DNA from: Ectothiorhodospira marina
Lineage (GTDB): Bacteria; Pseudomonadota; Gammaproteobacteria; Ectothiorhodospirales; Ectothiorhodospiraceae
DNA length: 32,000 nt
Assembly: GCF_900109495.1 (NCBI RefSeq)
Contig: NZ_FOAA01000002.1
Span: forward strand, 220,956 to 252,955
Reading direction: 5' to 3'
Under the pieces are notes generated by a model. The model worked only from the letters and a program-made list of their open reading frames with translations. It searched no databases and had not been told where the DNA came from. Each line of letters begins with the position of its first letter. The first letter of the stretch is position 1. Below are positions 5,287 through 32,000 of the stretch, piece by piece. The translations under genes and the position numbers were made by a program.

Positions 5287-5751
5287 TCAGCCGCCGCAAC
5301 CACCGATGGTGACCTTGACTTCCCGCGAGCTGCTGTAGAGCTGGCCGTTGGCCTTGAGCACGGCAACAATATCGGAGCTGTCGCCCATCTTGATGCGTGT
5401 TGCCACATAGGCCTTGGTCCCTTCACCCAGCTTGTAGCTGGAGGTCAGCGGGTTGTTGTTAGCGGCTGCCAGGATGGCAATGTCCGTCACGCCGGTGAGG
5501 CTGGATTCCACGGTAATGGGCACCACGGCTCCGTTTTCCGCCAGTTCCGGGGCGCTGATAGTGATATCCCCCGAGTCGTGGCTGTCCGAGCCCATGACCG
5601 ATTTGAGGGCGTCACTGACCGACCCGGCCTCGAAACCCTCGCGGGCGCTAGCCAATACGGTGCTGGGGGTGAGCAGGCCGGCGCCTACGGCGACCCCGAC
5701 GGTGCCCGCTGCCAGGGTGCCCTTGAGAAACACTCGACGCTTGCTGTTCAT
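5287..5751 (-). CDS. soxY: Thiosulfate-oxidation carrier protein SoxY
   Basis: Carries the C-terminal sulfur-carrying motif GGCGG-COOH and a Tat-like signal (MNSKRRVFLKGTLAAG). I chose the start at the ATG preceded by GGAGGAG, not the longer ORF to 5814. Confidence 0.92.
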   Translation of the reverse strand: MNSKRRVFLKGTLAAGTVGVAVGAGLLTPSTVLASAREGFEAGSVSDALKSVMGSDSHDSGDITISAPELAENGAVVPITVESSLTGVTDIAILAAANNNPLTSSYKLGEGTKAYVATRIKMGDSSDIVAVLKANGQLYSSSREVKVTIGGCGG

Positions 5752-5897
5752 GTGGTCTCCTCCGGTTACTTCAATGCGGGGCCGTCTCAGGCCCGTTGAT
5801 AGATCACAATCCACAGCCTACCTAACTAAATCTTTTTTACAAGTGTTTTTTGGTTATATATGTCAAGTCGAATATAAGGTCATGCCGAAGCGGGTGA

Positions 5898-7442
5898 TCA
5901 GTCTTCTGTGAAGCGGATGGCGATGTCCCGTTTACTCCGGATCCGGGCCTCCAGGTGCGGAGTGAGGTCCGGCGCCGTCAGGGCCCGATCCAGTTGCCTG
6001 ACTGCCTCCCGGTACTGTCCATGATGGAAGTAGTATTCCGCCATGCTCTCGTGGCTGATCGCTTGCCGGTTGGCGCGGGTGGCGGCGTCGGCTCGCAGAC
6101 GCAGCAGTTCCGGAGGGGGATGATCCGCCTCGAGCAACCGGTCGAGCACCTGGATGGCCTGGTCGTGGTGGCCGGCGTCCAGCAAGGCCTTGGCGTAGGT
6201 CTGGGCCACCGGCAGGTAACCGGGATAGATGTCGTGCAGGCGCTCCAGGATGTGAAGCGCTTCGGCATGGTCCGGATTCCGGCCCTCCATGTGGATTTCC
6301 GCACGCCCAAGTTCCACGTACAAGGCCAGGCTCTCATTGTCGGCGGTGTCGATCCGGTCCAGGGTGGCCAGGGCCTGGTTCCTCTGCCCCCGTTCGTTTC
6401 GGGCCAGGGCATAGCCATAGAGTTGTTCAGGCGAGGGGGCTTCGCTGTCCGTTCGTCGCTCATGCAGATCCATCATCCGTGCGGGGTCCTTTAGCGCCTG
6501 GATGCGGGTGCGGATCAGCCGGAATTCCTGGGAGTCGCTGCGGTACTCCCCCTCATACTGGTTGGCTCGGACGCGACTGTCGCTGATGCGGCTGCTGGTG
6601 ACCGGGTGGGTGCGCAGATATTCAGGGACCGCCTCGGCCAGTCCGCCACTGAGTTGCATCAGTCGCTCGAAAAAGGTGGGCATGGCCTGTGGGTCGAAAT
6701 CAGTGGCTGCCAGAATGGAGATGCCAATGCGGTCGGCCTCCTGCTCGTTGGCGCGGGTGAAATTGATGCGCGCCTGCGCGCTACCCGCCATGCCGCCCAC
6801 GATGGCCGCCTGGCCCAACTCCGGTACATAGGCACTGGCGATGATGCCCGCCAGGATGGCCAGGCCCGCGGCCAGGTCGATGCGGGTGCTGCCAGCGTAG
6901 GCGCGTGCGATATGTCGCTGGGTGACATGGGCAATTTCGTGGGCCAGCACGGCCGCCAGTTCGGCCTCGTTGCGGGTGGCCTCGATCAGGCCGGTGTTGA
7001 CCCCGACGATCCCCCCAGGCATGGCAAAGGCGTTGATGCCATCGTCTTCCACCACCAGAAAGGTGAAGTTGGGGTGCCCATCCGGGGCGCTGGAGACCAG
7101 ACGCTGACCCACGGCCTCCACATATCCCAGCAGTTGCGGGTCCTCGCTCAAGGGCAGATTGCGGCGCACCTCCCGCAGCAGCGAGCGACCCAGTTGCTGC
7201 TCCTGGGAGGGGGACAGCATGGCCGAAGAGGGGTCTCCGATCTCCGGCAGGGAGACCTGGGCCGGTGCATGCACGGGCCACAGCAGGGTCAGACAGAGCA
7301 GGGCGGTGATCAGTCGCGCCCACAGGCGGGAAGCGGGTGCGACCCGCTCCCGGCGCGACGGGGTGGCCCCGCGCGTGGTGTTGCCTACTTGCCCAGTCCC
7401 GGGGACGACGAATAGGCGGCCATGGAACTTCGGTTTTCCCAT
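5898..7442 (-). CDS. bepA: M48-family zinc metalloprotease with C-terminal TPR repeats (BepA/YfgC-like)
   Basis: Has the HEIAHVTQRH zinc motif, a downstream E (NEQEADR), a signal-peptide-like LITALLCLTLLWPVHAPA, and a TPR-like C-terminal half. The exact start is uncertain. Confidence 0.8.
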   Translation of the reverse strand: MGKPKFHGRLFVVPGTGQVGNTTRGATPSRRERVAPASRLWARLITALLCLTLLWPVHAPAQVSLPEIGDPSSAMLSPSQEQQLGRSLLREVRRNLPLSEDPQLLGYVEAVGQRLVSSAPDGHPNFTFLVVEDDGINAFAMPGGIVGVNTGLIEATRNEAELAAVLAHEIAHVTQRHIARAYAGSTRIDLAAGLAILAGIIASAYVPELGQAAIVGGMAGSAQARINFTRANEQEADRIGISILAATDFDPQAMPTFFERLMQLSGGLAEAVPEYLRTHPVTSSRISDSRVRANQYEGEYRSDSQEFRLIRTRIQALKDPARMMDLHERRTDSEAPSPEQLYGYALARNERGQRNQALATLDRIDTADNESLALYVELGRAEIHMEGRNPDHAEALHILERLHDIYPGYLPVAQTYAKALLDAGHHDQAIQVLDRLLEADHPPPELLRLRADAATRANRQAISHESMAEYYFHHGQYREAVRQLDRALTAPDLTPHLEARIRSKRDIAIRFTED

Positions 7443-7699
7443 AGTTTCGGCTTTAACATGGCTTCGGGCAGCATGAAGCGTTTCTTGTCGGAGACCGGCA
7501 CCGTGCGCACCACCCGGGTCACATCCTTATAAGGGATCTTGAACAGCAGGCCGGACTGAGCCCCACCGTCGGTGCGGCGGGCGATCATGTCCTGGTCGAA
7601 CAACTGGTGGACATACAGGTTGGCGGGTCGGAGTCGGCCATGGGTGTCACGCAGGGTGACGGCATACTGGGTGTCAACGGCAAAGGCTTTCTTGTCCAT
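7385..7699 (-). CDS. Hypothetical protein (104 aa)
   Basis: An ATG-initiated ORF in the only open frame of this interval. I recognise no motif. Its 3' end overlaps the annotated bepA start by 58 nt. Confidence 0.4.
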   Translation of the reverse strand: MDKKAFAVDTQYAVTLRDTHGRLRPANLYVHQLFDQDMIARRTDGGAQSGLLFKIPYKDVTRVVRTVPVSDKKRFMLPEAMLKPKLWENRSSMAAYSSSPGLGK

Positions 7700-7865
7700 G
7701 GTCTGGGGGTCCTCGGCTGATGTGGCGGGGATGGTCCCGGCCCGTTGAACACTACCACGCCTCAGACATCGACGTGGCTCCTTGGTTCAGGAGCGCAATC
7801 CCCGGCGGAATTTTCGGAACATCATAATTATATGTTGTCTTAGTATATGCTAATACGGTAACGTG

Positions 7866-7896
7866 TGTCGCAATTGAGTTGTCGCAAATCAACTCA
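7866..7896 (+). promoter_or_regulatory. Candidate operator upstream of the tusA-dsrE3-shdr operon (direct repeat plus inverted repeat)
   Basis: TGTCGCAA occurs at 7866-7873 and again at 7880-7887. It is interleaved with TTGAGTT (7874-7880) / AACTCA (7891-7896), inside the only AT-rich stretch of the 7700-8075 intergenic region. Confidence 0.25.
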
Positions 7897-8075
7897 GGCC
7901 GGCCAGCTATAAGTATGATGCTTCAGGGGATAAAAAATCCTTAAGACGCCAAAGCCCCGGAGCCTTGAGCATTCATGCGATGATCTGGCGGCGAAGGCTT
8001 TTATACATCACATCAGGGACGTTATCCGCGGTTGCGCCGAAGCCGCTCGTCCCGCGCAAGAGGAGTGATTGAACC

Positions 8076-8306
8076 ATGGCTGATTTCGACCAGGAACTGG
8101 ATGCCTCCGGACTGAACTGCCCGCTGCCCATTCTGCGCGCCAAGAAGGCCCTGGCCTCCCTGTCCAGCGGTCAGGTGCTGCACATCATCGCCACCGACCC
8201 AGGCGCGGTGAAGGACTTCGAGGCCTTCGCCAAGCAGACCGGCAACGAGTTGATGGAGCATAAGGAAGAAGGTGGCAAGTTCTACTTCCTGATGCGCAAG
8301 TCCTGA
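8076..8306 (+). CDS. tusA: TusA-family sulfurtransferase
   Basis: 76 aa with the canonical LDASGLNCPLPILRAKKAL motif (Cys-Pro-x-Pro active site). A GAGGAG RBS is present. Confidence 0.9.
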   Translation: MADFDQELDASGLNCPLPILRAKKALASLSSGQVLHIIATDPGAVKDFEAFAKQTGNELMEHKEEGGKFYFLMRKS

Positions 8307-8316
8307 CAGGGTTTGC

Positions 8317-8341
8317 ATGGCCGTCGCCCCGCGACGGCCAT
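8317..8341 (+). other. Intra-operon stem-loop between tusA and dsrE3
   Basis: A perfect 10-bp stem, ATGGCCGTCG / CGACGGCCAT, with a 5-nt loop. No T-tract follows, so it is not a classic terminator. Confidence 0.4.
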
Positions 8342-8416
8342 CTCGCTTGAGAGCCCTTCTTCAAAGGGCCAATGACCTGGCTGTTCAAGCAGGCAATTTT
8401 AAGGAGGATGTTGCAC

Positions 8417-8884
8417 ATGTCGGAAAAGAAACTCGCCATCATCGCCACCAAGGGGACCCTGGACTGGGCCTACCCCCCGTTCATCCTGGCCTCGACAGCC
8501 GCGGCCCTGGGCTACCAGGTACAGGTGTTCTTCACCTTCTACGGCCTCCAGTTGCTGAAGAAAAAGCCCGATCTACAAGTCACCTCGCTGGGCAACCCGG
8601 GCATGCCCATGCCCATGCCGATGCCCGTGCTGCTGCAGGCCCTGCCCGGGATGCAGGGCATGATGACCTCGATGATGAAGAAGAAGATGAAGTCCAAGGG
8701 CGTGGCCAGTGTGGAAGAGCTGCGGGAGATGTGCCTGGAGGCGGAGGTGAAGATGGTGGCCTGCCAGATGACCGTGGATCTGTTCGACATGTCCCGGGAC
8801 GACTTCATCGATGGCATCGATTACGGCGGTGCCGCCACCTTCTTCGAGTTCGCGGGTGACTCGGACATCTGCCTGTATGTGTAA
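8417..8884 (+). CDS. dsrE3: DsrE3-type (DsrE/DsrF-like) sulfurtransferase
   Basis: Shows a DsrE-fold signature (KLAIIATKGTLDWAYPPFILASTAAALG...VFFTFYG) and a conserved Cys in MVACQMTV. I chose the start at the ATG 9 nt after AAGGAGG. It contains a Met-rich insert. Confidence 0.8.
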   Translation: MSEKKLAIIATKGTLDWAYPPFILASTAAALGYQVQVFFTFYGLQLLKKKPDLQVTSLGNPGMPMPMPMPVLLQALPGMQGMMTSMMKKKMKSKGVASVEELREMCLEAEVKMVACQMTVDLFDMSRDDFIDGIDYGGAATFFEFAGDSDICLYV

Positions 8885-8993
8885 CGGCTAGCGAAGTCCG
8901 GGAAATGGTCTAGACTTCCTGAACGACTTAAAAGTTGACAGTTTTACTAGGGCATAGATCGATAACGCCCCGCGATATGCAACGAGGTATCCC

Positions 8994-9677
8994 ATGGCAA
9001 CCTATGCGGAAATGCAGCAGATCTACGATGACATTCGTGGGGACTTCCGTTACGACCACGAACTCAATGGCTGTCTCAACTGCGGTATCTGTACCGCCAC
9101 CTGCCCTTCGGCCCAGTTCTACGATTACAGCCCCCGGGAGATCGTGCAGCTGCTCTGGACCGAAAACGTGGAGCAGATCTACGACGCCATGCAGGAAAAG
9201 ATCTGGGCCTGTGCCCAGTGCATGACCTGCGCGGCCCGCTGTCCGTTCAAGAATTCTCCCGGTGGCCTGGTGGCCATCATGCGGGAGGTGGCCATTCAGC
9301 ACGAGATGCAGTCCGCCAAGGATGTGCTGAGGCCCTTCGGGCGGGTGATGCTCAAGCTGATCACCACCGGCAATCAGCTCTCCCCGGATATGATCCAGCC
9401 CGACCATTTCCCCGATTGGGGTCCGAATATTCAAAAGGTGGACGGGGACCTGCGCATCCTGCGCAAGGCCATCCCCATGCAGACCCTGCAGACCACCGAT
9501 ACTGCCTGGGAAGTCTCCCTGAAAACATCCGTAGAGATGTACACCATCTGGGAGATGACCGGGGTGCTCAAGTCGCTTGAGCTGATGGATGAAAACCTGT
9601 TCGACGTGATCGAGGATTTCATCGACGAGAAAAGGGAGGAATACGACGAGTGGCTCGAAGAACAGGAAGAAGATTGA
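8994..9677 (+). CDS. hdrC1: sHdrC1, heterodisulfide-reductase-like subunit C (2x[4Fe-4S] ferredoxin)
   Basis: Two Cys clusters, CLNCGICTATCP and CAQCMTCAARCP. The position and order match sHdr operons. Confidence 0.88.
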   Translation: MATYAEMQQIYDDIRGDFRYDHELNGCLNCGICTATCPSAQFYDYSPREIVQLLWTENVEQIYDAMQEKIWACAQCMTCAARCPFKNSPGGLVAIMREVAIQHEMQSAKDVLRPFGRVMLKLITTGNQLSPDMIQPDHFPDWGPNIQKVDGDLRILRKAIPMQTLQTTDTAWEVSLKTSVEMYTIWEMTGVLKSLELMDENLFDVIEDFIDEKREEYDEWLEEQEED

Positions 9678-21127: not shown

Positions 21128-21496
21128 ATGAAGAAGATCGACATCACCAATGTCAGTGACCTGCGCAACCAGCTCAACCGCTACCGGCGGGGCAAGAAGT
21201 TCGACATCCACCAGTTCAACCAGGTGGCCCGTCTGGCCTGGCTGGGCAAGGTACTGATGCAGCCCCTGGACCCGGAGGACGAGACCTGCACGGCCTTCCT
21301 GGTTTATGTGGAGCACCCAGACGAGCTGGTGGCCCATTGTCTGAGCCCCGATGAAGACCTGGTGGGCCAGATGCACATCGTGGATGGTCAGCAGGCGCAG
21401 GCCCTGATCCAGATCCTCAAGCTGGGGGTGGAGGAGCGCGCCAAGCTCTACGATGACCTGTCCCGGTCCGATTTCTACTTCCGCTACTTCTCCTGA
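21128..21496 (+). CDS. Hypothetical protein (122 aa)
   Basis: Lies 22 nt after lipS2 with a GGGAGG RBS. I recognise no motif. Confidence 0.5.
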   Translation: MKKIDITNVSDLRNQLNRYRRGKKFDIHQFNQVARLAWLGKVLMQPLDPEDETCTAFLVYVEHPDELVAHCLSPDEDLVGQMHIVDGQQAQALIQILKLGVEERAKLYDDLSRSDFYFRYFS

Positions 21497-21502
21497 GGCG
21501 CC

Positions 21503-21919
21503 ATGTCAGCCCAAGCCCCCTCCGACACGCCCCAGGTCCCCACCATCGAGGCCCGCATGGAGCGGCGCTTCATCGTCATGACCACCCGGGAGGGGTTTTT
21601 AAACGCCCTGGAGCCGGTGACGCCGGCGGGTTGGACCCGGGTGACGGTGACGGATCTGGACGATATCGGCCCCTGGAACGACATCCTGCTGCACCGCTTC
21701 ATGCTCCTGGACCTGGATGATCCGGGGGCGTTTGATCCCCTGGATGTCATCCAGACCCTGCGCATGGAGTACCAGATCAACCTGCCGGTCTTCTGCCTGG
21801 GCGGGGGTGCGGACCTGCAAGGGGAGATGCGTCTGTCCCGGGCCGACCGGTTCTTCACCGAGGCCGAGTTGCTGGAGATGCTGCCCCGGTTCTTCGAACT
21901 CTACGGCTGGGGGCGCTGA
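21503..21919 (+). CDS. Hypothetical protein with degenerate receiver (CheY-like) pattern
   Basis: Alternating strand/helix pattern RFIVMTT...FMLLDLDDP...LPVFCLGGG. The N-terminal acidic pair is replaced by TT, and no K-P motif is present. Confidence 0.5.
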   Translation: MSAQAPSDTPQVPTIEARMERRFIVMTTREGFLNALEPVTPAGWTRVTVTDLDDIGPWNDILLHRFMLLDLDDPGAFDPLDVIQTLRMEYQINLPVFCLGGGADLQGEMRLSRADRFFTEAELLEMLPRFFELYGWGR

Positions 21920-21924
21920 AGGCC

Positions 21925-22242
21925 TCAGCCCACCCAGGCGTGTTCCGTGGTGTCGATGCGGATGTCCTGGCTGAAGGTTTCGCCGTTGCCCTCGATGCTG
22001 AGGGTGCCCACCCGGGTGCCGGCGGTGTCGTAATGAAAGCGGCAGTCAAAGGTGCCGGGCATCCGGACCTGCGTCTCGCACAGGGTCTTGCCCTCGGCCA
22101 CAAAGCGGGCCTTGGCGCTACCGGTGCCGTTCAACACGGCCTGCAGACGGAACTCCTTGCCCACCGGGCGGCGATAGAACTCCGGGTCGCGATTGGCGTT
22201 GTATTGCAGGTTGTTCAGTTTGACCAGCTTGACCAGTGCCAT
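21925..22242 (-). CDS. Hypothetical protein (105 aa)
   Basis: A clean ORF convergent with the previous gene (5-nt gap). No motif recognised; probably beta-rich. Confidence 0.5.
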   Translation of the reverse strand: MALVKLVKLNNLQYNANRDPEFYRRPVGKEFRLQAVLNGTGSAKARFVAEGKTLCETQVRMPGTFDCRFHYDTAGTRVGTLSIEGNGETFSQDIRIDTTEHAWVG

Positions 22243-23754: not shown

Positions 23755-25140
23755 TCAGGTATCCAGGGGGCTTCTCACGGCAAGGCCTCCACGGTTCAAC
23801 ACGTGGGTGTAAATCTGGGTGGTGGACACATCGCTGTGCCCCAGCAGTTCCTGAACGGTTCTGATGTCATAACCCTGCTCCAGCAAATGGGTCGCAAAAC
23901 TGTGCCGCAAGGTGTGGCAACTGGCTTTCTTGTGAATGCCCGTCTTTCTAGCGGCTCCCTTGACGGACTTCTGCACAGCGGTTTCGTGCAGGTGGTGGCG
24001 CCGGGCTTTACCCGAACGCGGGTCTACCGAAAGACGACCGCTGGGAAACACAAACTGCCAGCGCCATTCGCGAGGCGCGTTGGGATACTTCCGCGCCAGC
24101 GCATCAGGCAGGAGCGTTTCCCCCAGTCCCTGCTCAACATCCCTGACGTGCAGTGCACGCACGGATTCCAGGTGCTCCGTCAGCGGGCCAACCAGCGATT
24201 CCGGCAAGGGCACGATTCGGTCCTTGTTCCCCTTGCCAGATCTCACCACGATCAATCCCCGGTCAAATTCCACGTCCTGTATGCGAAGCCGCAGGCATTC
24301 CATCAGTCTCATGCCGGTCCCGTAGAGCAGAGAGGCGACCAGGGAGGGAACCCCAGTCAGTTCGTCGAGCATGCGCCGCACTTCTTCCCTGGAGAGCACC
24401 GTGGGCAATCGCCTGGGGCGTTTGGCCCTGGAAAAGGGGCCAATATCGCCAAGGGGTTGTTCAAGTACCTTACTGAACAGGAAGGCCAGCGCGTTCAAGG
24501 CTTGCTTCTGAGTACTAATGGAGACATTGCGTGTGACCGCAAGATATTGGAGGAAATCAGCCACCTGCGCAGCTCCCAGACTGGAAGGCGCCTGTCCATC
24601 GCAATGGTGGATGAATCTGCAGATCCAGCCCATATAGGATTTTTCCGTCCTGATGGACATATTGCGAGTTCGCATCACCGCAATCAGCTTTTCGAAAACA
24701 GGCTGATGGGCAAGTATCAAGGGCGCAAAGCGTTTGTCACCCACATGCCGTGCAAACTCCGCCGGTGTGAGAGGCACATACTCCCGGGCCAAGGTCGCGT
24801 GCTGTGGTTCGAGCGCCTTGGCCGAAGCGCGCCAGTAGTCCCAGTCAAACGTTTCACTCCATTCCGTGTTTACCAACTTATACAGAATCTGTATAGCGTC
24901 GATGACCTGGAGGTACTGCCAAGGCTTCAGGTTAGGGGATTCGCCCACCTTGAGCAGATAGCCCGAGACGTCGTCAGGGGTGAGGGAGGCCAGTCGTCGG
25001 CGGGGGAAAGCACGGATGAACTGCTCCGCCCGAATCCGGTACCAGCGCACCGATTCCGGCTTGATTCCTTTTTGAATCAGATGTTTGCTAAAGCGGGACC
25101 AGAAAATGCGCTCTTTGTCCGTAAGAGGAGGGTTGGCCAT
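23755..25140 (-). CDS. intI: Integron integrase IntI (tyrosine recombinase) with about 145-aa N-terminal extension
   Basis: Carries the IntI-specific insertion [43 protein letters not shown]. Catalytic motifs are also present: [47 protein letters not shown]. Confidence 0.92.
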
Positions 25141-25269
25141 GTCCTTGGCTCCAATCAGGGTCTGAAAAAACTGTTCCGGGATGATGCAATACTTTGGGGA
25201 TGGGTGGCAAGCTCTGAAGAATTGCAGGCATGCTATACAGAATCCGTCTTTCCTGGGGAAGGCCGATTC

Positions 25270-25289
25270 TGTCGAATATACTGTTATAT
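25270..25289 (+). other. Candidate attI core (GTTATAT crossover box)
   Basis: This is the only GTT-R-like box between intI (25140) and the first cassette ATG (25305): GTTATAT at 25283-25289. The attI arms are not defined. Confidence 0.3.
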
Positions 25290-25304
25290 TTTAGGAAGTA
25301 ATCG

Positions 25305-26171
25305 ATGAAGTACGAACAACGGATAGTGGCCTTTATTGATATATTGGGTTTTAAAGCACTTCTGAATGAGACCACTGACAAAAAAGGGAATGATGATGAG
25401 AAGGCAATTGATGCAGTGGTCTCAGCCTATGAGGCAATTAGAGATATTTGGGATTTAGATAAAAAATCCGATTATCTCGACACAAAATCATCAGACACAA
25501 AGAAAGTTTCCATTTTTTCTGACTGCCTAGTTGTATCTTTCGAGATAAACCAGCCTAGTGAAGTGTTTTTCACTTTGTTAGAAATAAAATGGCTGATAAT
25601 GAGACTTATCGCACGCAAGATATTGTGTAGAGGAGCGGTATCTCTTGGAAAATTTATCCACACTGACAATTACCTGTTTGGGCCAGCGTTAGTAGAGGCA
25701 TATACGCTAGAATCAAAGGCTGCCATGTATCCGCGAGTCATTTTAGATCACACTGTGATTGAAGCTGGAGCTAAAAACAGAGGCCTTGATCATAGCTTTA
25801 GTCAAGAGCATGAGTATGTGCAGTCACTACTTGAGCTGGACTCCGATGGCATGTACTACATAGACTACTTTTTCAAAGCCCAATCAGAACTGGATGACCC
25901 TGAATATGATTTCCCCGAATATATAGAAAATTTGGCTGAAATAATTCGTAAAGGGCTTATGGGGTCAAGCCACCATAGTAAGGCTGACATAAGAGTTAAG
26001 TATTCTTGGATGAGAGAGCGCTATAACAAGATGGTTGATATTGTCACAAACAAGAGTGCCATCCAAAGACTTAAACAATCTGGAGAGTACGATCTTTCTG
26101 AATTTTATAGTCAACTGAAGAAGATCAGCCCAAACAAATATAACAAGGCATTGCAGCGGACGAGCCGCTGA
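25305..26171 (+). CDS. Cassette 1: class III nucleotidyl-cyclase-like (palm domain) protein with unknown C-terminal half
   Basis: Three segments are collinear with the cyclase-homology domain. VAFIDILGF aligns with F-x-D-I-x-GF. IFSDCLVVSF aligns with I-G-D-x-x-M-x-x-F. CRGAVSLGKFIHTDNYLFGPALVEAYTLES aligns with R-I-G-I-H-x-G....LFGDTVNxAxRxES. An AGGAAG RBS lies 6 nt upstream. Confidence 0.55.
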   Translation: MKYEQRIVAFIDILGFKALLNETTDKKGNDDEKAIDAVVSAYEAIRDIWDLDKKSDYLDTKSSDTKKVSIFSDCLVVSFEINQPSEVFFTLLEIKWLIMRLIARKILCRGAVSLGKFIHTDNYLFGPALVEAYTLESKAAMYPRVILDHTVIEAGAKNRGLDHSFSQEHEYVQSLLELDSDGMYYIDYFFKAQSELDDPEYDFPEYIENLAEIIRKGLMGSSHHSKADIRVKYSWMRERYNKMVDIVTNKSAIQRLKQSGEYDLSEFYSQLKKISPNKYNKALQRTSR

Positions 26172-26185
26172 ATGCGGCGTTAATG
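26138..26185 (+). other. attC site 1 (very short, overlaps 3' end of cassette-1 CDS)
   Basis: R'' is ATATAAC at 26138-26144 and R' is GTTAATG at 26179-26185. GCATT-G-CAGCGG pairs with CCGCTGAATGC, leaving one extrahelical G. Confidence 0.6.
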
Positions 26186-26369
26186 GCCTTGGCCCTGTCA
26201 GTGGTATCGTTGGGTTAGAGTTTGATCGAATTTGAATCTATTTATGAAAAACTGGCAAACGTATCTTCGAAGAAAAATAATTTTTCGACCTCGTTTATAG
26301 CTTGAGATTGGTAATTCTCGGTCAAAATATTAAAGTTATATCGGAATAGTTTGGGTGATAGATAGGCGA

Positions 26370-28040
26370 ATGGAAAGAAATGATGAATCACATTTTAATA
26401 TCTATTTTTGCGGAAGCGCTATTGAATTTCCAGATGTGAAGCGCCCGGCGATAATTTTTTCGCCAGTGAATGATAGCTGGAATGATTTTAGATATAAGTG
26501 TAGCTACCGATATCTAATTTATTTTGGAGACGGACGAAGGGAAATAGAAGGCCGCGTATTTCTCGGATTTACGTCAGGTAACGAAAATATCGAAGATAGT
26601 GGTCAGCTATCTAATCAAGTCGAGGTAGTCGAGGCGAGTGAACTACCTGATTTTTTTACACTACAGGGAGGCATGAAGGATTATCGTTACTTTGTGAATG
26701 AGCATGGAACTGAAGATGCAAACCGCCTTCTCCTGGCTTTCAACGATTTGGTTGCCTGTCGGCGTTTTCCAAAACGAGCGAAACTCGTCGATGTTGCAGT
26801 AAAAACGGAAGTATTTAGTTTAGCTTTAATGAGGGACTCTGATCGTTTTTTTGCGTTTCACAATGCGGACACGATTCTTGATGGTTTGGAGGAAGAAAGC
26901 TTTTCTAGAATTTCGACTGAGTTTTCACTTTCATATGATCTTGCAGGGTTCCCAGAAAATCACAATTTATATTTGAATTTTGATACGAACAGCATTCTCC
27001 CGAAAAGAATCAGCGTGCTAATTGGGCGAAATGGCCTAGGGAAAAGCCAGGCTCTCCACACAATAGTAAGGTCTTTGGTTAAAGGAGATCTGCGTTTCTC
27101 TGATCGTGACCACGGTAGACCAATGGTGAGCCGCTTGCTTGCCATTGCTACGCCGGGAGAAACAGCCAATACTTTTCCTCCTGAGCGCCAAAATAAAAGA
27201 ATTAAGTATCGACGATTGATACTCAATAGGAGTGCGAGAGCCAAGGCCTCAAGGGGGTTCGGTGATCTCTGCGTTCAGCTTGCTCGGTCCGAGGAACTGA
27301 TTGGCAATAACGACCGTTGGAGACTATTTGAAGATAGCATTCAGCTTTTTTCTAATATTAAGAATGTCGTCATACCTTTGAGCAAAGATATTTCAGTTGC
27401 GGCTGATCATGTTTTGAGAGTCAACGGTAAACGTTATGTGCCGCTTTTGAAGCTAAACCATGGGGGAGAGCAGGCTAAATTAGAAGTACAAGGTGCTGTC
27501 GTAAGCAACGCTAACCCAATGATGTACATAGAGGATGATATTTTTCCTCTCAGCAGTGGACAACTTTCATTTATTAAGTTTATTGTCCAAGCTTGTTTGT
27601 TTGTTGAAAATGGAACCCTCGTTCTACTAGATGAACCAGAAACACACCTCCACCCAAACTTTATATCGGAGTTTGTCAGGATCCTTGATCGGTTATTAAA
27701 ATCTACTGGATCTGTTGCCGTCATTGCCACACACTCTGCCTATTTCGTTCGAGAAGTCCCTAGAAACCAAGTTCTGGTATTTAAAGGCGACGGCGATGGT
27801 CGGGTAAGCATTCAAAATCCTAGACTGAAGACATTTGGTGCAGATGTTGGGACGATCTCTTATTTCGTTTTTGAAGATGAAATTACTAATGGGTTAGTTG
27901 AAGATATACTAGATCGATTCCCACAAAATCCTGAAGCTAGAGATTCGTTATTAAAAGAACTAGAAGCAGAGTTGTCCGCTGACGTTGTTATGTACCTGCG
28001 CAGGAAGCTGAACATGGAGGAAAATAATGAAGAGAATTGA
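26370..28040 (+). CDS. Cassette 2 gene A: ABC/SMC-type (AAA_15/21-like) ATPase, PtuA-like, with unknown N-terminal domain
   Basis: Walker A is GRNGLGKS (27024-27047), the ABC signature is LSSGQ (27549-27563), Walker B is LVLLDE followed by PETHLHP (27618-27656), and the H-loop is IATHS. The first roughly 210 aa carry no motif I recognise. The alternative GTG start at 26355 would add 5 aa. Confidence 0.8.
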   Translation: MERNDESHFNIYFCGSAIEFPDVKRPAIIFSPVNDSWNDFRYKCSYRYLIYFGDGRREIEGRVFLGFTSGNENIEDSGQLSNQVEVVEASELPDFFTLQGGMKDYRYFVNEHGTEDANRLLLAFNDLVACRRFPKRAKLVDVAVKTEVFSLALMRDSDRFFAFHNADTILDGLEEESFSRISTEFSLSYDLAGFPENHNLYLNFDTNSILPKRISVLIGRNGLGKSQALHTIVRSLVKGDLRFSDRDHGRPMVSRLLAIATPGETANTFPPERQNKRIKYRRLILNRSARAKASRGFGDLCVQLARSEELIGNNDRWRLFEDSIQLFSNIKNVVIPLSKDISVAADHVLRVNGKRYVPLLKLNHGGEQAKLEVQGAVVSNANPMMYIEDDIFPLSSGQLSFIKFIVQACLFVENGTLVLLDEPETHLHPNFISEFVRILDRLLKSTGSVAVIATHSAYFVREVPRNQVLVFKGDGDGRVSIQNPRLKTFGADVGTISYFVFEDEITNGLVEDILDRFPQNPEARDSLLKELEAELSADVVMYLRRKLNMEENNEEN

Positions 28041-28881
28041 TCCTCCTGCTATTGATGACATTAAAGAGTTACAGCTTCTAGCTAATAACCACGGTCTCGG
28101 GAGTTATCCGGGCCTGATGAATGAATATATCCGATTTCGTAGTCAATACAATGTCTATAGTAAAAGCGGTGGAAACCCTTGGAATATAGCTCCATTGCCC
28201 ATTAGTGACGATTTAAAGAAGGCATTAAGAACTCATTATGGCTCTCCTCCGCAAGGTCGGCTGCAATTTCTCAAAAAGTATCGTCGAGGTTTATCGCCAA
28301 CAATTTGCCCAATGTGTGGGGGGTTCGGTAATGGTACTTTGGATCACTATCTTCCCAAAGAGGACTACCCAGAGTACTCATTTTTTTCTAAAAATCTTAT
28401 CCCAGCTTGTAATTGTAACTCGTTAAGAGGGACTACTGTTAAAGGGGTAGCATCTCCTGCAAGAGTAATTCATCCATATTACGATGATTTTCTGCAAGAC
28501 CGATTGTATCAAGCTGTGTTTCAAGGTGAGTTTTCTGCACCTAGTATTTCTATTGAAATTATTGATAAAAGCCATCCTGAATTTGATATTTTAAAATTTC
28601 ATCTCGACGAAGTAATTAAAAATGAAGCAACTCAAGGTTGGTTTGAGAAATATTGGAGCGATTTAAGTCAGCGTCCCCATGATAAGCTGGAGTTGGTTCT
28701 CCCATTGCCCGCGCAAGATGTGAGCGGAGCTGATTTGAAAGTTGCTCTTGAAAGATATAGAAATCATATGGATAAAGATCATGATACGCCAAATAATTGG
28801 CTTTCTATATTCTATACTGGATTGATTAAGGATCATAATCGCTTAGACAAGTTAGCAGCGGTCATAAACAGCAAGAGATGA
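28027..28881 (+). CDS. Cassette 2 gene B: HNH endonuclease, PtuB-like
   Basis: HNH core CPMCGG...LDHYLPKEDYPEY...NLIPACNCNSLRG at 28306-28425. The ATG overlaps the end of the ATPase gene by 14 nt. Confidence 0.8.
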   Translation: MKRIDPPAIDDIKELQLLANNHGLGSYPGLMNEYIRFRSQYNVYSKSGGNPWNIAPLPISDDLKKALRTHYGSPPQGRLQFLKKYRRGLSPTICPMCGGFGNGTLDHYLPKEDYPEYSFFSKNLIPACNCNSLRGTTVKGVASPARVIHPYYDDFLQDRLYQAVFQGEFSAPSISIEIIDKSHPEFDILKFHLDEVIKNEATQGWFEKYWSDLSQRPHDKLELVLPLPAQDVSGADLKVALERYRNHMDKDHDTPNNWLSIFYTGLIKDHNRLDKLAAVINSKR

Positions 28882-28927
28882 TATATGTGCGCCTAGCTTG
28901 GAATAACGAATTTCATGGCAACCATGC

Positions 28928-28985
28928 CATTAACAAGGAGCGTAAGGCGGACGGCTTTCAGCCGCCGCTTCGCTCAGCGTTGGAC
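28928..28985 (+). other. attC site 2
   Basis: R'' is CATTAAC at 28928-28934 and R' is GTTGGAC at 28979-28985. GAGCGTAAGGCGGACGGC pairs with GCCGCCGCTTCGCTC, with bulged bases. Confidence 0.7.
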
Positions 28986-29003
28986 GCTGAAGTGAGGTAA
29001 CCC

Positions 29004-29624
29004 GTGGGGCTCTCAGTTCCGTTGCAGGCAGACAACAAATCCGTCTCGCCAAATTATCGCGTAATCGACTGGCATGACGCCATGCGGTCCGACGATTGGG
29101 CTACGATGGTCGCCATTTTTAGAGATCGGCTGCATGGCAGATTCTTGGAGCCAATCGAACACATAGAGGCAGATAGGAGGATAGGGGGGTTCGCAGGTTT
29201 CTCCATAATGGCACTTGATTGCCTGCTTGTTGAGACTTTAAATCAGTTCTATCACGGTCTCGATGAGACACCTAAGGATCACCAAAGACAGTTTTGGAAG
29301 TTTTTTAGTGGTAGCGAGCATTTCAAGTCTAACTTCACAAGGAAGGTCTCGGACATTTTTTATAGTCATGTGCGCTGCGGATTACTGCACCAAGCCCAAA
29401 CAAAGAAAGGCACATTGATTAGGGCCGACCAAGATAGGATGATAAGCCCGGCTCCTGGGGGATTGGTCAATGGGATAATCGTTGATCGCGTCCGTTTCCA
29501 TGATGCATTAAAGCAGGAAATAGCGACATACATCCGAACGCTGGAATCGGGAGAGGAAGGTGGTGCGGACCTCCGCAATAACTTCATCACAAAAATGCAG
29601 TACATCTGTGGAGGGCAGGCCTGA
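29004..29624 (+). CDS. Cassette 3: hypothetical protein with R-x4-H (HEPN-like) motif
   Basis: 206-aa ORF with a GTG start 6 nt after GAGG. It is predicted helical and carries RCGLLH at 29373-29390. I do not recognise the family. Confidence 0.5.
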   Translation: MGLSVPLQADNKSVSPNYRVIDWHDAMRSDDWATMVAIFRDRLHGRFLEPIEHIEADRRIGGFAGFSIMALDCLLVETLNQFYHGLDETPKDHQRQFWKFFSGSEHFKSNFTRKVSDIFYSHVRCGLLHQAQTKKGTLIRADQDRMISPAPGGLVNGIIVDRVRFHDALKQEIATYIRTLESGEEGGADLRNNFITKMQYICGGQA

Positions 29625-29628
29625 TGGC

Positions 29629-29706
29629 GTCCAACAATCGCATGCAGCCGACCGGCCTGCCTCCGCTGCGCTACTGCAGTCAGGCGGCTGATGCGCGGCG
29701 TTAGGC
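29629..29706 (+). other. attC site 3
   Basis: R'' is GTCCAAC at 29629-29635 and R' is GTTAGGC at 29700-29706; both fit the consensus. CGCAT-G-CAGCC pairs with GGCTGATGCG, leaving an extrahelical G. Confidence 0.8.
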
Positions 29707-29729
29707 TCCACCAGTTACGGAGGGAGTAA

Positions 29730-30140
29730 ATGGAAATCAAGTGTATTGCGGGTTTTGCGTCGATTACTAAAGATCCTGCGGCAAGTGCATCACTGTATCA
29801 GGGCGCCCTAGGTTTGCCGCTGGAGAAAATGGATGATTATCGTTTCATGGATAAATTTCCCGGAGCGAATCATTTCGGAGTATGGCCTCTAGCTATGGCA
29901 GCTCAGTCTTGTTTTGGTCAGGAGGAATGGCCTAACCATATTCCTGAGCCGACCGCTACGATTGAATTTGAGTTGGGGGATGCGGCTGCTGTGGAAGCGG
30001 CAGTAGAAGAAATGAAGGAAAAGGGGCAAGAGTTCGTTCATGAAGCCCGGACTGAACCTTGGGGGCAGACAGTCGCAAGGTTTATGAGCCCCGAGGGAGT
30101 GTTGGTTGGTCTCAGTTATGCGCCATGGCTTCATGAATAA
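29730..30140 (+). CDS. Cassette 4: VOC-family (glyoxalase/bleomycin-resistance/dioxygenase fold) protein
   Basis: 136 aa with a layout typical of small VOC proteins: N-terminal beta-alpha-beta-beta-beta (FASITKDPAASASLYQGALGLPLE) and a C-terminal EPWGQTVARFMSPEG. Confidence 0.7.
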   Translation: MEIKCIAGFASITKDPAASASLYQGALGLPLEKMDDYRFMDKFPGANHFGVWPLAMAAQSCFGQEEWPNHIPEPTATIEFELGDAAAVEAAVEEMKEKGQEFVHEARTEPWGQTVARFMSPEGVLVGLSYAPWLHE

Positions 30141-30141
30141 T

Positions 30142-30217
30142 AGCCTAACCATAGCGTCAACGCGGACTGGCTTTTCCGCTGACGCTCCAAAACCAGCCGG
30201 TTACGCTGGTCGTTATG
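30142..30217 (+). other. attC site 4
   Basis: R'' is GCCTAAC at 30142-30148 and R' is GTTATGT at 30211-30217 (one mismatch to GTTRRRY). AGCGTCAACGCGGACTGG pairs with CCAGCCGGTTACGCT, with bulges. Confidence 0.7.
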
Positions 30218-30271
30218 TGGACTTCACCTTTAGGCCACGGAAGAGGTTCTAATGACTGATTATTTCGGTTC

Positions 30272-30655
30272 TTGTGTCTGTGTGGCACAGTGAGTTTTCA
30301 GGTAAAAGGTGATTTCGATAGCTTCTACCTGTGCCATTGTCTGCATTGCCAAAAAGACACAGGTTCGGCTCATGCGGCAAATCTATTCTCGCATTCCGCT
30401 AAATTGGTCTGGCAATCGGGTTCAGATGCTGTAGCTTCCTTTACGCTTCCTGGCACTCGTCATAACAAAAGCTTTTGCAAGTTGTGTGGTTCAGCATTGC
30501 CAAATACACAGGTCGCGGGTTTGCTTGTTGTTCCGGCAGGGTGTTTGGACTCTCAAATAACGATGTTGCCTACGGCGCATATCTTCTCATCCAGCAAAGC
30601 TGTTTGGGATGAGCGGTTGGAGGAGGTGTCAAAGTTCGAGGGTCTACCAACGTGA
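30272..30655 (+). CDS. Cassette 5: GFA-family (glutathione-dependent formaldehyde-activating / CENP-V-like) zinc protein
   Basis: Contains CLCGTVSF...CHCLHCQKDTGSAH...CKLCGS, a typical GFA Cys pattern. It has a TTG start. An upstream ATG at 30252 lies in a different frame (see findings). Confidence 0.75.
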   Translation: MCLCGTVSFQVKGDFDSFYLCHCLHCQKDTGSAHAANLFSHSAKLVWQSGSDAVASFTLPGTRHNKSFCKLCGSALPNTQVAGLLVVPAGCLDSQITMLPTAHIFSSSKAVWDERLEEVSKFEGLPT

Positions 30656-30664
30656 ACCGCCACC

Positions 30665-30749
30665 ACATAACTAGTGCATTAAATTCGTTCCGGCCCGATG
30701 GGCCTCCACCGGACGCCCTAGTCGGGCGCCGTTTATGCAGGCGTTAAAT
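30665..30749 (+). other. attC site 5
   Basis: R'' is ACATAAC at 30665-30671 and R' is GTTAAAT at 30743-30749. TGCAT-T-AAA pairs with TTTATGCA. It overlaps the yoeB stop codon. Confidence 0.6.
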
Positions 30750-31003
30750 CAGTAGTGATACCGGAGCTGGGCGATAAGCAAAGCGTCATCCGTGACTTTG
30801 TAAACTATTCGGTGTTCTTCGTTGATCCGGCGGGACCAGTACCCGGCGAGGCTGTGTTTTAGGGGCTCTGGTTTGCCAACACCTTCGAACGGTTCTCGCT
30901 TGGTCTCTTTGATCAGCTTGTTGATTCGGTTAAGAATCTTTTTGTCGGTTTTCTGCCAGTACAGATAGTCTTCCCAGGCGTTCTCGGAGAAGATGAGTTT
31001 CAT
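30749..31003 (-). CDS. yoeB: Cassette 6: YoeB/Txe-family mRNA interferase toxin
   Basis: 84 aa reading MKLIFSENAWEDYLYWQKTDKK...GKPEPLKHSLAGYWSRRINEEHRIVY...RYHY, a canonical YoeB sequence. Confidence 0.92.
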   Translation of the reverse strand: MKLIFSENAWEDYLYWQKTDKKILNRINKLIKETKREPFEGVGKPEPLKHSLAGYWSRRINEEHRIVYKVTDDALLIAQLRYHY

Positions 31004-31251
31004 TCAAGAAGTTCCTTTTCTTGACCACCGCCTTGCTCCAGCTCGGCAACGGATTCCAGCAAACGCCGTGCGTTTTTTGGTGCGCGCAGAAGGTATGCAG
31101 TTTCTTGCAGCGCCTCGTAGTCCTCGAGGGAGATCATTACCACTGACTGCGACTTGCTCCGGGTGATGATCACAGGGGAATGGTCTTCACAGACCTGCTC
31201 CATGGTTTTTGCTAGATTGGTTCTAGCGGCTGTGTAGCTAATGGCATCCAT
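31000..31251 (-). CDS. yefM: Cassette 6: YefM/Phd-family antitoxin
   Basis: 83 aa reading MDAISYTAARTNLAKTMEQVCEDHSPVIITR...MISLEDYEALQETAYLLRAPKNARRLLES. The stop and the yoeB start overlap (4 nt). I chose the start at the internal ATG of ORF 31000-31341. Confidence 0.9.
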   Translation of the reverse strand: MDAISYTAARTNLAKTMEQVCEDHSPVIITRSKSQSVVMISLEDYEALQETAYLLRAPKNARRLLESVAELEQGGGQEKELLE

Positions 31252-31305
31252 AGGGTTGCTCCTGTACAGGATATTGGTCATGTTCAGGATACCGTACGCC
31301 AAAGG

Positions 31306-31383
31306 ATTTAACAATCGGCTGCACAGCGACCGATTTTCCACCGCTTCGCGGCTCCAAACCGGCGCGTGATCCGGGCGTTAGCA
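31306..31383 (+). other. attC site 6
   Basis: R'' is ATTTAAC at 31306-31312 and R' is GTTAGCA at 31377-31383. The central CCGCTTCGCGGC palindrome resembles the interior of attC 4. Confidence 0.65.
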
Positions 31384-31420
31384 AGATGCCATTAGGCACA
31401 CAGCCTGCTAGACTAGCCGT

Positions 31421-31693
31421 ATGAAGCAAATAAACTGGAATGCCGAAAAGAACCAGCAGCTGATGAGCGAACGCGGAGTCTCCTTCGAAGACGTTCTGTT
31501 TGCTCTCCAGTCTGGTGGTTTGCTTGATGATGGACCTCATTCCAACAGGGAGAAGTATCCAAGCCAGCGTATATTCGTGGTTCGGATAGATGATTATGCC
31601 TGGCTGGTGCCGTACGTTGAAAATGATAGGGAGTTCTTTCTCAAGACGATTGTTCCCAGTCGCAAGGCCACCAAGAAATTTTTAGGAGGATAA
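31421..31693 (+). CDS. brnT: Cassette 7: BrnT-family (DUF497) ribonuclease toxin
   Basis: 90 aa. INWNAEKNQQLMSERGVSFEDV fits the W-x-x-x-K-x-x-x-N-x-x-x-(H/R)-G-V-S-F-E pattern of BrnT toxins, and the C-terminus has SRKATKK. Confidence 0.75.
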   Translation: MKQINWNAEKNQQLMSERGVSFEDVLFALQSGGLLDDGPHSNREKYPSQRIFVVRIDDYAWLVPYVENDREFFLKTIVPSRKATKKFLGG

Positions 31694-31694
31694 C

Positions 31695-32000
31695 ATGGCG
31701 AAAACCAAATTGGATCCTGAAGAGCAAGAATTGCTTGAGGCATACGAATCCGGAAAGTTTGAGTCGGACTTGGATGCTGGTCGTCGCGAGTACCTAGCCA
31801 AGATGGCCGAAGAAACATTCAAGAAAGACAAAAGGATCAATATACGTATCTCTAGCCGGGATCTGGAGGCACTTCAGCGTCGGGCTCTGGAGGAAGGGCT
31901 TCCTTATCAGTCTCTCGTGTCCAGTGTCCTGCATAAGTATGTCTCTGGTGGCCTGAAGGACATTTCTGCTAACAAGTCAGGCCAGCGGACACGCTATTAA
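31695..32000 (+). CDS. brnA: Cassette 7: BrnA/CopG-type antitoxin
   Basis: 101 aa with the ribbon-helix-helix-like segment KRINIRISSRDLEALQRRALEEGLPYQSLVSSVLHKYV. It starts 2 nt after the brnT stop. The stop codon occupies the last 3 nt of the window. Confidence 0.75.
   Translation: MAKTKLDPEEQELLEAYESGKFESDLDAGRREYLAKMAEETFKKDKRINIRISSRDLEALQRRALEEGLPYQSLVSSVLHKYVSGGLKDISANKSGQRTRY
31967..32000 (+). other. attC site 7 (5' half only, truncated by window end)
   Basis: TGCTAAC-AAG-TCAGGCCAGCGG has the same R''-spacer-L'' layout (TAAC AAG) as attC 1 and 2. The partner half lies outside the window. Confidence 0.4.

Follow-up and report, generated by a model that had tools for sequence, protein, structure and literature searches.

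A chromosomal integron beside the sHdr locus of Ectothiorhodospira marina and its defence-type gene cassettes

Is the AT-rich DNA next to the sulfur-oxidation (sHdr) locus of Ectothiorhodospira marina a true chromosomal integron, and do the gene cassettes closest to its integrase act in defence against phages? Both questions are raised by a stretch of 32,000 nucleotides (nt), here called the window (positions 220,956 to 252,955 of NZ_FOAA01000002.1, which is contig C30 of our genome G000); coordinates below are those of the window unless a contig or locus is named. A sequence-only reading had described an integrase gene, intI, divergent from an array of at least seven attC-bounded cassettes that runs off the window, in the order cyclase-like protein, ATPase plus HNH pair, R-x4-H protein, VOC protein, GFA protein, yefM-yoeB and brnTA, and had taken the first three for defence cargo. 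We conclude with considerable confidence that the locus is a complete, sedentary chromosomal integron of Ectothiorhodospira, with the mechanism and the cassette functions proposed below. The integrase, the attC sites and the cassette order all bear out the earlier description, and the proposed functions do so in part.

The integrase and the attC-bounded cassettes

The recombinase gene and the adjoining recombination site are arranged as follows.

23755-25140, minus strand: intI, integron integrase of 461 amino acids (aa), intact, identified with TIGR02249 and by alignment with VchIntIA
25141-25288, plus strand: intI-attI intergenic region, with the attI core GTTATAT at 25282-25288

By sequence comparison the product of 23755-25140 is a tyrosine recombinase of the IntI clade and a genuine, intact integron integrase. 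Against the NCBIfam model TIGR02249 'integron integrase' (cut-off 265) it reaches 460.5 bits, and a search with this model finds one such gene in the genome and none above the cut-off in the control genomes. Residues 155-460 align at 321 bits with VchIntIA, the IntIA of Vibrio cholerae (PDB 2A3V), and this alignment spans the IntI-specific insertion (the patch ending ...RRHHLHE), the catalytic Arg, the H-x-x-R motif and the Tyr. The gene is full length and stop-free, with every catalytic motif kept. It is divergent from the cassette array and reads away from attI, the core of which (GTTATAT, 25282-25288) is the exact reverse complement of the R'' box ATATAAC of attC1.

At its N terminus the integrase carries an additional SAM-like domain of about 148 aa (residues 1-148, window 24700-25140), which is kept at 65-70% identity in other genera. 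Among the best 80 IntI loci, which include Chromatiales, Competibacter, Thauera, Desulfocapsa and others, most align from query residue 1-17 onwards, and from these alignments the long form of IntI with this domain looks widespread.

The attC sites were located by eye and with a script, and are listed here as R''..R', each followed by the pair formed by the 5' box of its cassette and the cassette's own R'' box.

26138-26185, plus strand: attC1, ATATAAC..GTTAATG; pair GTTATAT/ATATAAC
28928-28985, plus strand: attC2, CATTAAC..GTTGGAC; pair GTTAATG/CATTAAC
29629-29706, plus strand: attC3, GTCCAAC..GTTAGGC; pair GTTGGAC/GTCCAAC
30143-30218, plus strand: attC4, GCCTAAC..GTTATGT; pair GTTAGGC/GCCTAAC
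30665-30749, plus strand: attC5, ACATAAC..GTTAAAT; pair GTTATGT/ACATAAC
31306-31383, plus strand: attC6, ATTTAAC..GTTAGCA; pair GTTAAAT/ATTTAAC
31967 to window-equivalent 32126 (126 nt beyond the window), plus strand: attC7 (160 nt), TGCTAAC..GTTAAGC; pair GTTAGCA/TGCTAAC

Each of the seven cassettes pairs the GTTRRRY box of its 5' boundary with the R'' box of its own attC: the two are exact reverse complements (7/7), a regularity that we call the chain rule. This complementarity is expected from circularisation, since the variable part of the R' found at a cassette's 5' end is part of that same cassette, and the probability of seven such agreements by chance is at most (1/16)^7, with only the purine/pyrimidine choice left free. 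This is the strongest evidence that the cassettes are attC-bounded, and the order and gene content of the seven agree with those read earlier from the sequence. The cassettes are co-oriented and the attC sites lie directly 3' of open reading frames (ORFs). Their bottom strands fold with the R-box, an unpaired spacer and a bulged L-stem, the single-base bulges being always on the '' arm, with stability z-scores that are mixed and run from -0.5 to -4.1.

A covariance model trained on nine attC sites of this array, of which only the two arms were kept and the variable centres removed, matches with default filters all six complete sites in the window, each on the plus strand, and nothing else in the 32 kb, in agreement with the earlier claim that the sites are foldable attCs. 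Sites on which it was not trained are matched in the arrays of related genomes (six in G007, four in G021, two in G024 and one in G004), in orientations that fit the local intI, as are, on two unrelated contigs of metagenomic or genomic origin, the sites flanking cassette 3 homologs. With the filters off only the short attCs (48-58 nt) are recovered, apparently through a limit on hit length. A scan of the window with the Rfam gathering thresholds gives no match, Rfam having no attC family, and genome-wide low-threshold scans for palindromes and chains were too unspecific.

We propose that IntI recombined the folded bottom-strand hairpins of attC sites with attI and so inserted about ten cassettes, promoterless or self-promoted. 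In the established integron model expression from the Pc promoter falls with distance from attI, and the proximal three cassettes would on this model be expressed. The GC content drops from 0.58-0.68 to 0.40-0.43 at about 25000, then stays near 0.50 from 29000 on, and the AT-rich proximal cassettes may have been recently acquired.

The three attI-proximal cassettes

The proximal part of the array holds the following cassettes.

25283-26179, plus strand: cassette 1 (897 bp), ORF 25305-26171 (288 aa), attC1 at 26138-26185
26180-28979, plus strand: cassette 2 (2800 bp), ATPase 26355-28040 (561 aa), HNH protein 28027-28881 (284 aa), attC2 at 28928-28985
28980-29700, plus strand: cassette 3 (721 bp), ORF 29004-29624 (206 aa), attC3 at 29629-29706

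The proposal that all three are defence-like holds for cassette 2 (PDC-M01A, 2.6e-61), holds partially for cassette 1, a relative of the toxin PanT without an antitoxin, and finds no support in cassette 3. Cassette 2 is, judged from its profile matches, a Septu-type defence system. Its two ORFs overlap by 14 nt; the first encodes an ATPase matching AAA_21 (1.6e-16) and AAA_15 (2.4e-11) in Pfam, the second matches the HNH endonuclease family phrog_10378 (1.2e-18), and against PADLOC the cassette gives PDC-M01A (2.6e-61), PtuA (5.5e-45) and PDC-M01B (1e-39). The translations contain a Walker A motif (GRNGLGKS), a Walker B motif (LLDEPE), the signature LSSGQ and the HNH pattern CxxC..DH..N..CxCN. 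The NCBIfam PtuA equivalog NF041760 is matched at 41.9 bits, short of its cut-off of 500, and the cassette is therefore filed as Septu-type/PDC-M01 and not as canonical PtuA or PtuAB. PDC-M01 is reported to overlap with type I Septu, and SthRAP-11, a system that matches it, figures among the reported defence systems of a 2026 Streptococcus thermophilus preprint. The likeness to Septu type I/PDC-M01 extends to the two-gene overlapping operon, an ATPase with Walker A, Walker B, signature and H-loop intact, a Cys4-HNH nuclease, and full-length profile matches to PDC-M01A and PDC-M01B, with PtuA also matched; unlike Septu type I, however, its best profile is the candidate family PDC-M01, and it is packed as one 2.8-kb cassette with its own AT-rich leader. 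The closest genomic relatives of the pair (69-71% identity), in Litchfieldella rifensis and Arsukibacterium ikkense, keep the overlapping arrangement and have no attC. The cassette would be PtuA/PtuB-like, most likely an anti-phage nuclease kept in check by the ATPase.

The AT-rich leader of cassette 2, about 170-175 nt before the ATPase start (26186-26354), is unusually long and may hold a promoter for the cassette; matches to promoter consensus sequences within it do not exceed chance.

Cassette 1, which had been read as 'cyclase-like', does have the fold of a cyclase, and its closest characterised relative is the toxin-antitoxin (TA) toxin PanT. The protein has no match in Pfam, NCBIfam or PADLOC, 56 diverse relatives have none in Pfam or PADLOC, and a profile search of the PDB is also empty. 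The AlphaFold2 (AF2) model has a predicted local distance difference test (pLDDT) value of 80, and in Foldseek it finds adenylyl and guanylyl cyclases at E 2e-5 with a TM-score of about 0.64 on the target; all 50 of the top 50 matches are cyclases, including the Pycsar uridylate cyclase 8JSZ. D12, D73 and R109 are invariant across the family (D12 and D73 in alignments A1 and A5), and by motif reading the two Asp residues would stand at the metal-binding positions, and R109 at the phosphate-binding position, of class III cyclases. With these enzymes (Ma1120; the Pycsar cyclase 8JSZ) cassette 1 thus has in common the palm-type cyclase-homology fold, the Asp pair and R109, but it differs in an extra C-terminal helical domain of about 100 aa, in having no partner effector gene and in matching no Guanylate_cyc model. 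A canonical class III cyclase was ruled out, as none of the 56 members matches Guanylate_cyc in Pfam and the transition-state Asn/Arg appear to be replaced: GPALVEAYTLES stands where G..VN.A.R.ES is expected, by motif reading and not by superposition.

The family of cassette 1 is very large, with 9,642 clusters at 50% identity at E <= 1e-3 and 5,145 at E <= 1e-10, mostly stand-alone proteins of 250-290 aa. Homologs at 60-88% identity occur in Methylophaga, Aeromonas, Serratia, Vibrio and others, and copies 85-88% identical in aa sequence are found in unrelated sources such as Methylophaga thiooxydans. The Aeromonas homologs are solitary variable genes, whereas the Methylophaga homolog lies in a mobile region with an attC relic. 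The family matches the prophage family phrog_23933 (5.5e-39), and a tblastn search of phage records finds Burkholderia prophages only (4e-10), the target being YP_293707.1, which lies beside the DUF4065 gene gp9 and matches cassette 1 at 5e-17 in BLASTP and at 99.7% probability (E 1e-26, 234 columns) in hhalign. This target is PanT of the Burkholderia prophage phi52237, a validated growth-arresting toxin described as a 'putative nucleotide cyclase', which stops transcription and translation and which PanA neutralises (Kurata et al. 2022, PMC8832971). Cassette 1 and PanT have the motifs YE.R.VAFIDILGFK, FSD.IV.S, RG.I..G and FGPA.V.AY..ES and a cyclase-like fold in common, although the two are only 28% identical, cassette 1 has no Panacea (DUF4065) partner and it belongs to a very large family of mostly stand-alone proteins. 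The Panacea antitoxin (PF13274/DUF4065) is absent from cassette 1, which has one ORF, and from the whole 99.97%-complete genome, so that a complete PanAT module is ruled out. Cassette 1 is, on these comparisons, a solitary relative of the validated toxin PanT. With its two metal-binding Asp kept, it would most likely be a nucleotidyl-transferase-type toxin or abortive-infection effector that is silent until triggered, and a triggered role of the abortive-infection kind is plausible and our best guess by analogy.

Cassette 3 encodes a protein in which R124 and H129 (the R-x4-H motif) and E77 are invariant among 60 sequences (alignment A2), with an all-helical AF2 model at pLDDT 92.8. The 60 members match nothing in Pfam, the HEPN families included, Foldseek finds no structural neighbour in the PDB or BFVD at E < 0.01, a PDB profile search is empty, and a tblastn search of phages finds no homolog. 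Like the HEPN ribonucleases (R-x4-6-H), the protein has an invariant R-x4-H in an all-helical structure, but despite a model at pLDDT 93 it has neither a HEPN match in Pfam nor a neighbour in the PDB or BFVD, and we reject membership of HEPN: the motif is present, but there is no HEPN profile among the 60 members and no fold neighbour. Homologs are found on an Idiomarina-like contig (77% identity) and on a 5-Mb metagenome-assembled contig (69%), and both (L032, L033) start with TTGGAC GCTGAA.TGAGGTAAC as cassette 3 does and have an attC with the R'' box GTCCAAC or GTCCAAT. This like cassette start and attC in unrelated arrays make cassette 3 a bona fide mobile cassette, and its orphan R-x4-H protein travels with it between arrays. 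Remote relatives lie amid small hypothetical genes on Bacillus, Agrobacterium and Rhizobium plasmids, adjoining zeta toxin and umuDC-like genes on those of Bacillus and Agrobacterium. A defence role for cassette 3 is a guess.

Rare members of the cassette 3 family are fused to a GGACT/AIG2 gamma-glutamylcyclotransferase-like domain (PF13772/PF06094) and to PF20815 (P0202, P0210). Such fusions might hint at the function of the family.

The distal array, its end and its relatives

The remaining cassettes of the window are these.

29701-30212, plus strand: cassette 4, VOC/glyoxalase-family protein 29730-30140 (PF00903, 1.9e-9), attC4 at 30143-30218
30213-30743, plus strand: cassette 5, GFA-family (CENP-V/GFA) protein 30272-30655 (PF04828, 3.8e-23), attC5 at 30665-30749
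30744-31377, minus strand: cassette 6, yefM 31000-31341 and yoeB 30749-31003, with attC6 in array orientation
31378-32000, plus strand: cassette 7, cut by the window end, BrnT-like protein 31421-31693 and CopG/BrnA-like protein 31695-32000, attC7 from 31967

The two TA modules that had been read in the distal part differ in the strength of their matches. In cassette 6 both YoeB_toxin (1.8e-41, 140.5 bits) and PhdYeFM_antitox (1.4e-24, 86.1 bits) are over their cut-offs, and the yefM and yoeB ORFs overlap by 4 nt and read opposite to the array, as TA cassettes commonly do. The brnTA-like scores of cassette 7 are weak: the BrnT-like protein reaches 23.4 bits (Pfam cut-off 34.5), NCBIfam BrnA 20.1 (cut-off 60), and CopG_antitoxin passes with 30.9 (cut-off 28). 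The yefM-yoeB pair is a TA-type module of the array-stabilising kind, as are probably the brnTA-like pair and the DUF4160/DUF2442 pair of cassette 10 (below).

The array continues past the window, as had been noted, and contig C30 ends 499 nt further on. Cassette 8 encodes a LysE-type exporter and is split by an insertion sequence (IS; C30 253360-253454 / C32 1-95), which has the inverted repeats TGCGTA..AAGGTTGCCAC and the 8-bp target duplication GGTATAAG. The IS also has GCCAC motifs repeated in its subterminal parts, and its end sequence recurs on contig C2 and at the end of C14. An in-silico empty-site join across the IS restores an intact LysE ORF of 205 aa and links C30 to the start of C32; the assembly breaks between C30 and C32 because the IS interrupts cassette 8. 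On C32 attC8 has the R'' box GCTTAAC, the very sequence that the chain rule requires given how cassette 8 starts. Two further cassettes follow on this contig (locus L001).

Contig C32, attC9 at L001 3261-3308: cassette 9, a protein without assigned function
Contig C32: cassette 10, a DUF4160/DUF2442 pair, ended by a degenerate attC, GCACAAC .. GTCTCCC

This last attC has GTC instead of GTT, and after cassette 10 come a BrnA-like fragment and, from about 4000 of L001, DNA of host GC content. The integron thus totals about ten cassettes, with the end of the array on C32 after the crossing of the IS.

A group II intron lies at L001 (G000:C32) 525-2565 (RF02005 78.8 bits, RF00029 46.1 bits), with a 513-aa reverse transcriptase ORF at 916-2457. 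It interrupts the R' box of attC8 (GTTA|GCC) and has the strand of the cassettes. When it is removed in silico the box reads GTTAGCC again, which complements the R'' box of attC9, and attC9 and attC10 then obey the chain rule. Classical group IIC-attC introns are inserted on the opposite strand (PMC3001079), and a group II intron in the same orientation at an attC has been described in a soda-lake metagenome (PMC7923331).

The integron has on one side an aldo/keto reductase gene, which adjoins intI and lies at the margin of the sHdr-LbpA locus, and on the other a block of nicotinamidase and nicotinate phosphoribosyltransferase genes. Upstream of intI is the sHdr-type cluster itself, with HdrC/B/A-like proteins, DsrE, the lipoate-binding protein LbpA, two radical-SAM proteins, an LplA-like ligase and a geranylgeranyl-reductase-like protein, so that the position beside sulfur-oxidation and lipoate-assembly genes is as first described. 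The stretch 21128-22242, which separates the lipoate-assembly genes from the aldo/keto reductase gene, holds two small ORFs without family matches, 21503-21919 (plus strand) and 21925-22242 (minus strand). The host had been taken for a chemolithotrophic sulfur oxidiser, and this needs correction: the genome encodes PufL and PufM, and with its membership of Ectothiorhodospira this makes it a phototrophic purple sulfur bacterium and not a strict chemolithotroph.

Elsewhere in the genome, locus L002 (G000:C16:160000-174000) contains at 5488-9245 a cluster of attC-like sites without an integrase (CALIN), whose sites at 5488-5546 and 7031-7112, with a 430-aa ORF without known function between them, follow the chain rule; after them come a GmrSD_N/NsnA/PD-T4-2_A-like gene (1.3e-69) and a HEPN_RiboL-PSP gene, then a further attC-like site. 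On contig C33 of the same genome two sites near-identical to attC6 and attC8 (34597-34674 and 46513-46591) lie in a low-GC stretch at about 33-49 kb, with no intI nearby.

Comparison with sister genomes points to the cassette turnover that had been expected. Orthologs of intI in congeners are 90-93% identical, and the aldo/keto reductase neighbour is kept in G007. The 13 proteins of the seven window cassettes have no homolog in the arrays of five relatives, and the families of the cassette 2 ATPase, cassette 1 and cassette 3 were not found in any of 10 other genomes of the genus that were searched. The conserved intI and the missing cassettes suggest a platform that is vertically inherited and a cargo that turns over completely. 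Such turnover would be indirect evidence for excision and integration by IntI.

Alternative explanations and significance

Several observations weigh against the interpretation of the locus as a complete integron with defence cargo, and they bear on different parts of it. The attC covariance model is built on the array's own sites and is distinct from the IntegronFinder model, the bottom strands of attC3, attC5 and attC6 (z -0.5 to -1.9) are no stabler than many shuffles, and a crude palindrome scan gives many AAC..GTT-flanked inverted repeats elsewhere in the genome. Such findings would suit a locus with no integron at all, in which palindromic repeats (repetitive extragenic palindrome-like, or terminators) lie in an AT-rich island beside a Xer-like recombinase. 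We give this next to no credence, as the recombinase is far over an IntI-specific cut-off that the control genomes do not reach, the bulges are always on the same arm of sites directly 3' of ORFs, cassette 3 recurs with its ORF, attC and 5' start in unrelated arrays, and matches to the model are confined to arrays and are co-oriented relative to intI in the relatives; the 7/7 chain rule effectively refutes it. A genuine integron might instead be a decaying fossil that captures and shuffles no more and merely inherits its cargo. Among congeners, intI stops short at about residue 299-308 in G003, G004 and G010 and is broken by a 2.9-kb insertion in G007, and in this genome the IS in the LysE cassette, the group II intron in the R' box of attC8 and the degenerate terminal attC are signs of decay. 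No LexA box (CTGT-N8-ACAG) was found near intI, and a consensus promoter scan for Pc gives no plus-strand site upstream of 25305, its total of sites (5 against 3.6 in shuffles) being no better than that of shuffled sequence. We nevertheless regard a fossil as unlikely: intI is here full length with all its catalytic motifs, the R'' and R' boxes match perfectly at every junction, the proximal cassettes have a GC content of 0.40-0.43 against 0.62 for the host and were not found in 10 congeners, which argues for recent capture, and near-copies of cassette 1 (85-88% in aa) occur in unrelated sources.

The other adverse points concern the cargo. By the same motif reading cassette 1 would be without the transition-state Asn/Arg of canonical class III cyclases, PADLOC matches neither it nor its 56 diverse relatives, and cassette 3, which PADLOC does not match either, has no detectable relative of known function. 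That these two cassettes are not anti-phage, cassette 1 being an addiction-type or orphan toxin or an inactive relative, and cassette 3 having an unrelated role, possibly in the service of mobile elements (plasmid establishment or anti-defence, for instance), has close to an even chance of being right. The sole relative of cassette 1 to have been characterised is the toxin of a type II TA pair and not a proven defence gene (PMC8832971), and cassette 3 has no HEPN profile or fold match and its remote relatives lie amid small hypothetical plasmid genes, by zeta toxin and umuDC-like genes. On the other side, the cassette 1 family matches the prophage family phrog_23933 and has members that stand alone as variable genes or lie in a mobile region next to a DNA methylase, and the place of both cassettes by a Septu-type system at the presumed expressed end of the array fits the clustering of defence genes. 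TA toxins and lone toxin-like enzymes are, moreover, frequent abortive-infection effectors. The bolder proposal, that cassettes 1 and 3 are two new single-gene abortive-infection effectors shuttled by integrons, we hold to be doubtful.

The carriage of defence genes in integron cassettes is an already published principle, which this locus confirms and extends. Phage-defence cassettes are known from mobile integrons (BRiCs; Kieffer et al., bioRxiv 10.1101/2024.07.02.601719), and the V. cholerae superintegron has been described as a 'biobank' of anti-phage cassettes (Darracq et al., as cited in Kieffer et al., 10.1101/2024.07.02.601719). With these defence integrons the Ectothiorhodospira locus has in common the IntI/attI/attC platform, one- and two-gene defence-type cassettes with TA cassettes interspersed, and cargo homologs that also occur without attC outside integrons (the Septu-like pair in Litchfieldella and Arsukibacterium, the cyclase-fold gene in Aeromonas), as other defence cassettes likewise do (Kieffer et al., 10.1101/2024.07.02.601719). 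It differs, however, in having a small array of about ten cassettes, a haloalkaliphilic phototrophic host and an IntI with an N-terminal SAM-like domain, and the defence role of its cargo is predicted.

The locus thus provides well-delimited defence-type cargo in a chromosomal integron outside Vibrio and the clinical mobile integrons, with exact cassette boundaries that make the cassettes clonable as they stand. Its practical value lies in two compact uncharacterised cassettes at the presumed expressed end, a lone toxin relative and an R-x4-H mover, which are cheap to test. If the proposal of two new effectors were true, cassette 3 would represent a new helical fold around an invariant R-x4-H/E triad, and cassette 1 would be a partner-less PanT-like enzyme that is silent until phage infection and represents a family without a name, with more than 5,000 sequence clusters.

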